From IMG/VR virus record IMGVR_UViG_3300031088_000734: DNA of 64,000 nucleotides; one strand, 5' to 3'. The stretch comes from a virus. Both the position numbers and the translations under genes were made by a program. Numbering within the stretch: position 1 is the stretch's first letter; every line of letters starts with the position of its first letter. The notes below the pieces were generated by a model. It did no database searches and was not told the DNA's origin. It saw only the letters and a program-made list of their open reading frames with translations. Of this stretch, positions 53,407 through 53,833 are shown piece by piece.

Positions 53407-53833
53407 GTTGTAAAGCAGTAAGTAATCTTGGGAAGTTGGCTTAAAAGCAGCCATCTTATAATGAGTAGAGCGGTTGCCATAGGTGTTTGGGATTTAGTGA
53501 TGGTAAGCATCGGGTTTAAATGATTTAGCGGTCATTTGAGGGTATCGGTGACAAGTGAGCCACGGTTTGTCGAAATCGAATCCACATTAAAGTAGATTTT
53601 GCAGATCAAAACGTCTCAGCCAAAAACTCCCAGTTCTTGCAATAATGTAAGAATTCGCCGTGGTTGTGGTCTTGGTAAAGTAAGGAGGCACCCCAGAAAT
53701 GGTAAGGCCGAATTCTCTTTTGGCGTAATAGCACACCATGATTATGATTGTTTTCGCAACAAAACTGCCACTAAGGCTGACCTTAGCCCTCTAAAAGCTA
53801 AAGGGAACGGTTCGACTCCGTTGTGGTGGGCCA
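53407..53833 (+). ncRNA. large structured ncRNA containing a split 23S rRNA GTPase-associated-centre (H42-H44) mimic, a 256-nt insertion and a 3' tRNA-like element
   Basis: 53431-53466 and 53723-53736 match E. coli 23S 1055-1090 and 1091-1104 (42/50 by eye against the recalled sequence) with compensatory changes; bounded by a promoter and a terminator. Confidence 0.8.
53765..53833 (+). tRNA. atypical 69-nt tRNA-like element, anticodon CUA, short D-arm
   Basis: CTGCCAC/GTGGTGG acceptor, AAGG-ctga-CCTT mini D-arm, loop CT-CTA-AA, AACGG-TTCGACT-CCGTT T-arm, G-CCA end. Confidence 0.55.

Follow-up and report, generated by a model that had tools for sequence, protein, structure and literature searches.

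A D-arm-reduced tRNA-like element behind a ribosome-mimic RNA in a phage genome

Why does a phage that uses the standard genetic code carry, at the 3′ end of a large non-coding RNA, a 69-nt cloverleaf with an amber (CUA) triplet in its anticodon-type loop, the alanine mark G3.U70 in its acceptor stem, and most of its D arm lost? The question is raised by a 64,000-nt stretch of the IMG/VR virus record IMGVR_UViG_3300031088_000734 (the whole of this stretch is called the window below), in which the element occupies positions 53765-53833 of the + strand. Taking the locus as a whole, our analysis leans modestly toward a tRNA-derived module with a reduced D arm, which would be processed like a tRNA and would probably be charged with alanine.

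The 583-nt gap 53354-53936 is free of credible open reading frames (ORFs), and the cloverleaf occupies its 3′ end. An initial annotation, made from the sequence alone, had proposed a tRNA-like module at this place, and its ends are reproduced exactly by ARAGORN in mitochondrial mode (-mt). The Rfam tRNA covariance model (RF00005) adds a sub-threshold alignment; with 96 nt searched alone, 53765-53830 aligned over model positions 1-71 at 19.8 bits (gathering score, 29; E = 0.032 for 96 nt against 4227 families; estimated E for the tRNA model alone across the 64-kb window, about 0.005). Standard ARAGORN on the window, another part of the check that the annotation had suggested, does not call the cloverleaf (its sole call is a tRNA-Arg(CCG) elsewhere), and no Rfam family matches within the gap at gathering thresholds. 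With a sub-gathering score and no call from the standard finder, the element falls short of the threshold for a canonical tRNA. Its parts are as follows.

53765-53833, + strand: tRNA-derived cloverleaf, 69 nt (Rfam tRNA covariance model and ARAGORN -mt)
53765-53771 with 53823-53829, + strand: acceptor strands
53772-53773, + strand: U8 A9
53774-53783, + strand: reduced D arm
53784-53800, + strand: anticodon arm
53791-53793, + strand: CUA triplet, where the tRNA-type fold has its anticodon (U and A paired in the fold preferred by ViennaRNA)
53801-53805, + strand: variable region
53806-53822, + strand: T arm
53830, + strand: discriminator G
53831-53833, + strand: CCA

The acceptor stem comprises seven pairs (C1-G72, U2.G71, G3.U70, C-G, C-G, A-U, and C-G), the G3.U70 wobble being formed by G53767 and U53827. 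The T arm is canonical (AACGG/UUCGACU/CCGUU, with the loop GGUUCGACUCC), the variable region is the 5-nt AAGGG, and G73 and the CCA that follows it are both genome-encoded. The acceptor stem (7 bp), the T stem (5 bp, closing a GTTCRANYC loop), the discriminator, and the in-register CCA are those of a canonical tRNA, and the acceptor stem with G3.U70, CUCUAAA loop, T arm, and G73-CCA described in the initial annotation are all present in the window. The D region departs from the canonical form, which has a stem of 3-4 bp and a loop of 7-11 nt with G18 G19. ARAGORN -mt draws a U8 A9 connector, a 3-bp stem (AGG/CCU), and the loop CUGA, with nucleotide 26 missing, and the Rfam alignment reduces the D arm to 9 nt. 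The 4-nt loop lacking GG that had been described earlier is therefore confirmed, but the single-U connector and 4-bp D stem are not, because the U involved is also needed by the anticodon stem. This stem, UAGC(C)/(A)GCUA, consists of 4 bp plus a C31.A39 mismatch, and in the covariance model and ARAGORN alignments it closes the 7-nt loop CUCUAAA. Features that speak for descent from a true tRNA are U8 and A9, the 7-nt loop carrying U33 and A37, the 5-nt length of the variable region, the T loop GGUUCGACUCC, and the encoded CCA.

The origin of the element was considered in two ways. No clear parental isotype emerged when it was aligned with 1094 phage tRNAs; the top scores belonged to CUA tRNAs, which had been preselected by the search pattern. 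A copied 3′ half of a host tRNA, as at an attachment site, was rejected; the anticodon-arm-plus-T-arm and T-arm-plus-acceptor strings occur in no bacterial genome (185,579 species). After the CCA, the trailer of the cloverleaf (53834-53842) and that of the phage tRNA-Cys (G000 C1 61838-61849) both start with ACTTTAAA, which may be a shared processing signal or the trace of a duplication.

Beyond the window, viral pattern scans, metagenome scans, and protein-based scans found the cloverleaf in only three related contigs (L121/L128, L122/L181, and L158/L190; L121, L122, and L158 below), and the metagenome and bacterial-genome scans contained no copy. In the window, the cloverleaf is the second of two RNA elements that share one set of signals.

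53372-53400, + strand: sigma-70-type promoter (TTGCCA, 17-nt spacer, TATAAT; 11 of 12 matches, the best of the region; kept in L121, L122, and L158)
53407-53761, + strand: large non-coding RNA, a mimic of the 23S rRNA GTPase-associated center (H42-H44), assigned by its blocks, fold, and family
53762-53764, + strand: AAA spacer between the large RNA and the cloverleaf
about 53846-53881, + strand: intrinsic-terminator-like hairpin AUGCCAGC...GUUGGCAU, then a U run (minimum free energy fold; kept in L121, L122, and L158)

The large RNA and the cloverleaf form one transcription unit, with a single promoter and a single terminator bracketing both; transcription would start near G53407. The minimum free energy fold of 53407-53885 consists of three separate elements: the large RNA, closed by a helix of 53407-53430 with 53738-53761; an independent cloverleaf, directly 3′ of this larger structure and separated from it by 3 nt; and the terminator hairpin, whose stem shows one G.U to A-U change in the relatives. 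The genes neighboring the unit belong to no Pfam or PHROG family.

Such a configuration suggests a route by which both RNAs could obtain their ends. From tRNA geometry and a closing helix that ends at 53761, RNase P would be expected to cut between A53764 and C53765, setting the 3′ end of the large RNA just past its closing helix and freeing the 69-nt RNA. The trailer of the latter would be trimmed to the encoded CCA at 53833, and host alanyl-tRNA synthetase (AlaRS) would charge the product through G3.U70.

The large RNA (about 355 nt) has a 5′ block (about 53428-53466) and a 3′ block (about 53717-53737), with a domain of about 250 nt inserted between them. Against Escherichia coli 23S rRNA, the 5′ block (53429-53464) matches at 86% over 35 nt; a genome has a median of seven such places, and those listed are annotated as 23S rRNA. 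Phage contigs with the block pattern number at least 117, and not one of them represents a true 23S gene; an H43-like stem covaries, and the 3′ block (CUUUGGCGUAAYAGCACACC) is conserved. Cultured phages harbor members of the family that lack annotation (Aeromonas 4_4572; Pseudomonas Astolliot, pf16, and UNO-G1W1; Ralstonia RSP15; Xanthomonas XacN1; Paenibacillus Pd_22F; and others). The RNA corresponds to no family in Rfam 15, no ribozyme family matched at this locus, and full-text literature searches returned no description of it or of the reduced tRNA-like element. A tmRNA (transfer-messenger RNA) or permuted tmRNA spanning the large RNA was considered and rejected, with no ARAGORN call and no Rfam tmRNA match at E up to 10. 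Within the insert, a conserved GGCACCCC-hairpin-GGUAAGGCYGAA element is found in the window (53686-53712) and in the family loci L001 (3015-3045), L002 (3226-3250), and L003 (3009-3035); its small hairpin covaries, being CCA-GAAA-UGG in the window and CCG-GAGA-CGG in Pseudomonas phages.

The surroundings of the large RNA in other phages bear on the proposed processing. Among 65 distinct family loci with sufficient flank, 19 (29%) have a canonical tRNA on the same strand that begins 12-36 nt past the 3′ block; such a tRNA lies within 250 nt in 25 loci, and in 14 one ends no more than 80 nt upstream. The window's cloverleaf begins 29 nt past its 3′ block and is therefore the positional counterpart of these tRNAs. 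The tRNAs in this slot represent 12 different amino-acid identities (isotypes), and because their identity varies, the feature they share is the tRNA shape itself, a substrate of RNase P and the tRNA 3′-end machinery. The initial annotation had offered three roles for the element: a conditional amber suppressor, an uncharged-tRNA decoy, and an RNase P/CCA handle for the large RNA. With tRNAs in the slot in 29% of the family and the acceptor/T minihelix and encoded CCA kept, the handle fits best.

In 40 family loci that have no tRNA nearby, ARAGORN -mt detected no close reduced counterpart within 60 nt. L097 carries, 136-208 nt past its 3′ block, a 73-nt tRNA-like sequence with the anticodon UAG (tRNA-Leu type), a CCA end, and a D loop lacking GG, for which standard ARAGORN gives no call. 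In two loci the tRNA slot is taken by a tmRNA that ARAGORN does call: L044 has a phage tmRNA (tag ANTNFALAA) 333-600 nt past the 5′ block motif, and L034 a permuted tmRNA (tag ending SLAA) 337-742 nt past it.

A collapsed D arm, a sub-threshold covariance model score, and a tiny clade (the window and three contigs, with no copy in metagenome or genome collections) are what would be seen if the element were a decaying tRNA pseudogene, briefly retained and without a function of its own. The way in which the sequence has changed makes this improbable. The comparison covers four contigs, the window included, with three distinct cloverleaf sequences. In all three relatives the cloverleaf is kept, as the initial annotation had required of homologs, and every stem change preserves pairing: acceptor pair 6:67 is compensatory (A-U to G-C), and pair 28:42 goes from A-U to G.U. 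None of 23 loop positions has changed, the CUCUAAA loop being invariant in the four contigs, while the flanking spacers (15 nt and 14 nt) show approximately 10 changes in 29 nt. All four contigs retain an intact promoter and an intact terminator. This pattern of substitution indicates that the cloverleaf is held under selection as a unit of its own.

Contig L158 differs from the others in that the large RNA is precisely missing; what it has are the promoter and terminator seen in the others, a 20-nt leader, and a cloverleaf with exactly the L122 sequence. Comparison of L158 (3960-4120) with L122 (1925-2440) places the absence of the mimic exactly between the strands of the closing helix (the junction joins ..CGTTG to CAAAA..), and no copy of the 5′ block was found elsewhere in the 193-kb L158 contig. 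The surrounding region is a mosaic: the gene upstream is 94% identical to its L122 counterpart, the next upstream gene and the downstream gene are 46-52% identical, and the downstream genes are 46% identical to those of the window. The arrangement may reflect a recent deletion or insertion in a block recently shared with L122. Because L158 carries the cloverleaf without the large RNA, the cloverleaf is a module able to stand alone, and L122 (with the mimic) and L158 (without it) form a natural pair through which the roles of the two RNAs could be told apart.

The second part of the favored interpretation concerns charging. AlaRS ignores the anticodon and charges minihelices that contain G3.U70. 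Among 916 distinct phage tRNAs, this pair was found in 34 of 36 tRNA-Ala and in 16 of 880 other tRNAs; it is thus statistically unusual, and its earlier designation as an alanine determinant is upheld. It is kept in all four contigs, and U2.G71 is likewise kept in the relatives. Given the conservation of G3.U70 and the indifference of AlaRS to the anticodon, alanine charging is plausible, and the cloverleaf is probably an AlaRS substrate through this pair. No AlaRS core (PF01411) or CCA-adding enzyme (PF01743) was matched in the 179-kb phage record, which is estimated to be 55% complete; the three canonical tRNAs of the phage all encode CCA.

Several observations weigh against a processing module charged with alanine. 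In 46 of the 65 family loci no tRNA lies close downstream, so the large RNA does not require one. Formal covariation among the three distinct cloverleaf sequences is weak and without significance (172 of 500 shuffles score equally well). The presence of a stand-alone copy in L158 speaks for an element that is more than a handle for the large RNA, and the invariant loops suggest a sequence-specific function beyond plain RNase P recognition. Finally, U2.G71, C1-G72, and the G73 of the window are atypical of tRNA-Ala, the supporting A73 and G2-C71 not being found there (all three related contigs have A73), and these features may weaken charging. C1-G72 and G73-CCA are not special in this phage, because its tRNA-Arg has both.

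What the 69-nt RNA might do once charged is a further matter, and the CUA triplet brings in the possibility of a working amber suppressor that would be charged with alanine by AlaRS, delivered by EF-Tu, and used to read UAG in phage or host messages. The loop itself is suited to this role: the covariance model and ARAGORN alignments both give the canonical 7-nt arrangement C32 U33 CUA A37 A38, which is invariant in the four contigs and accompanied by a conserved G3.U70. The element comes with a promoter and terminator of its own and, in L158, stands by itself. Phage contigs often carry canonical CUA tRNAs (46 of 58 pattern matches), suppressor tRNAs are used by phages (PMC10879173), and they also occur in certain bacteria using the standard code (PMC13092985).

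The predicted structure speaks against such a role. ViennaRNA gives the tRNA-type anticodon stem, weakened by the C31.A39 mismatch, a pairing probability of 0.02; a rival helix (CCCU/AGGG plus UA/UA, with a 5-nt loop) that buries the CUA reaches about 0.85, the corresponding energies being -17.7 kcal/mol for the tRNA-type fold and -21.6 kcal/mol for the rival fold. The acceptor stem, T arm, and D hairpin are retained in the ViennaRNA fold with pairing probabilities of 0.7-0.9, and the single variable site near the anticodon arm (A to G, position 21) is compatible with both folds. The D arm lacks G18 G19 and nucleotide 26, and the elbow contacts of bacterial translation are therefore missing; the covariance model score, as noted, lies under the family threshold.

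The genome likewise gives little reason to expect suppression. The phage record (179 kb, 33.9% GC) uses the standard code without recoding, and TAG is an ordinary stop, as had been stated in the initial annotation: it terminates 14 of 253 long ORFs, and coding density does not gain when TAG is read as sense (0.855 with the standard code, 0.859 with TAG as sense). That TAG is the rarest stop would suit a suppressor, but no convincing read-through gene was found in a search for one. The only long in-frame extension, at 19313-20203 (- strand), consists of two same-frame ORFs of 137 and 154 amino acids separated by TAG plus four codons; the candidate was rejected, the second ORF appearing non-coding and lying antisense to a 249-amino-acid ORF at 18992-19741 (+ strand). 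Taken together, these results make a working suppressor unlikely, and we lean against the 69-nt RNA entering the ribosome and reading UAG.

The same triplet, with the small D loop and the G73 of the window, had led to a comparison with the pyrrolysine tRNA, and a 5-bp complementarity between GCAGU at 53415 and ACUGC at 53764 to the idea of a switch in which 53415-53419 would compete with the acceptor stem. Both ideas are now largely refuted and, as explanations of the element, highly improbable. The anticodon stem, variable loop, T loop, and C1-G72 are not those of tRNA-Pyl, G73 is not conserved (A73 in the relatives), and the search for pylS or other synthetase genes that had been suggested gave no PylRS-type core (PF01409), nor an AlaRS core, in the incomplete record described above. 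As for the switch, the pairing does exist in the window, but it is not conserved, because the change from GCAGU to GCAAU breaks it in L121 and L122, and in L158 the strand is absent. The change improves a G.U to an A-U pair in the closing helix of the large RNA, so that the strand suits this helix instead.

Another way to account for a tRNA shape beside a ribosome mimic is that the element does not decode at all and instead sequesters, as a decoy or sponge, a host factor sensing tRNA ends or shapes, perhaps jointly with the large RNA; candidate targets would include RelA, toxins that modify the CCA or cut the acceptor, and anticodon nucleases. Its partner in the transcription unit imitates the part of the ribosome with which translation factors and the incoming tRNA's elbow make contact, the loops of the element are invariant, and its non-canonical shape would exclude it from normal decoding. 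We nevertheless regard a decoy as quite unlikely. No partner protein was identified, the neighboring genes falling in no Pfam or PHROG family; the slot in other family members holds ordinary tRNAs of any identity or is empty; and L158 has the cloverleaf without the mimic.

A still bolder proposal, which we consider distinctly improbable, is an alanine-charged mimic that acts jointly with the ribosome-mimic RNA or, in a milder version, a minimal alanine-inserting amber suppressor without a normal D arm. In the joint version the cloverleaf, either alanine-charged with EF-Tu-GTP or uncharged with RelA, would dock on the factor-site mimic and imitate the A/T site off the ribosome, trapping or discharging a translation GTPase or blunting the stringent response.

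The nine largest ORFs of the window (367-965 amino acids) match no Pfam family at E up to 1e-5.

At 1305, 7046, 16009, 24711, 26549, 29563, 37007, 41156, and 62781: nine largest ORFs of the window

For the 965-amino-acid protein, tblastn against 50,697 records of isolated phages gave no match, and the phage lineage is very poorly charted.

If the transcript is processed as proposed here, the locus would show how ribosome-mimic RNAs of phages gain their 3′ ends, ahead of tRNAs or of tRNA relics. The element is a natural tRNA of bacterial type that has lost most of its D arm, is apparently still selected, and bears both the alanine mark and an amber triplet. It therefore raises testable questions about the minimal tRNA that RNase P, AlaRS, EF-Tu, and the ribosome will accept, and about minimal suppressors in phages with the standard code. 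What is new at this locus is a phage tRNA or tRNA-like handle, reduced in the manner of mitochondrial tRNAs, on a novel large RNA; the larger novelty is the ribosome-mimic family.

The element resembles several known systems in part. Like phage tRNAs, including the CUA suppressors of large phages, it is phage-borne, occupies a tRNA slot, lies in a unit with a promoter and a terminator, encodes its CCA, and shows CUA in an anticodon-type loop; unlike them, it has a 3-bp D stem, a 4-nt loop without G18 G19, and a sub-threshold score, and it resides in a genome that is not recoded. It resembles tRNA-Ala and the tRNA-like domain of tmRNA in its 7-bp acceptor stem bearing G3.U70, its canonical T arm, its reduced D region, and its CCA end. 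It differs from tRNA-Ala in that C1-G72 and U2.G71 replace G1-C72 and G2-C71 and in the discriminator G of the window, and from tmRNA in having a full anticodon-type arm.

The pyrrolysine tRNA has a 6-bp anticodon stem, a 3-nt variable loop, and a T loop without the T-Psi-C consensus. The present element resembles it in the CUA triplet, in a D loop that is small and lacks GG, and, for the window alone, in G73. Its anticodon stem, however, has five layers with a C.A mismatch, its variable region measures 5 nt, its T loop is canonical, its first pair is C1-G72 in place of G1-C72, and its relatives have A73; no PylRS-type core was found in the record. In overall geometry it is like the metazoan mitochondrial tRNAs with reduced D arms, and only the mitochondrial model of ARAGORN calls the cloverleaf; in contrast to these tRNAs it is phage-encoded and has a bacterial-type T arm, CCA, and acceptor stem.

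Theta ribozymes (HDV (hepatitis delta virus)-like) are found beside phage tRNAs, often suppressors, and a role in end formation has been proposed for them (PMC10879173). There, as here, a structured phage RNA lies directly beside a tRNA, but the ribozyme cuts the flank of the tRNA, whereas in the present locus the tRNA-like part would recruit RNase P and so shape the neighboring RNA. This direction of action recalls long non-coding RNAs of mammals: MALAT1 (with its mascRNA) and MEN-beta have tRNA-like 3′ modules that are cut by RNase P. The phage element matches no Rfam mascRNA-menRNA model at E up to 10, and it differs in its bacterial/phage setting, its encoded CCA, and its stand-alone copy in one relative. 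In both cases, however, a cloverleaf whose anticodon arm is poor comes directly after a large structured RNA, and cleavage in the phage transcript would likewise form the 3′ end of the large RNA together with a small CCA-ended RNA. If processed in this way, the phage locus would be a bacterial/phage counterpart of MALAT1/mascRNA.

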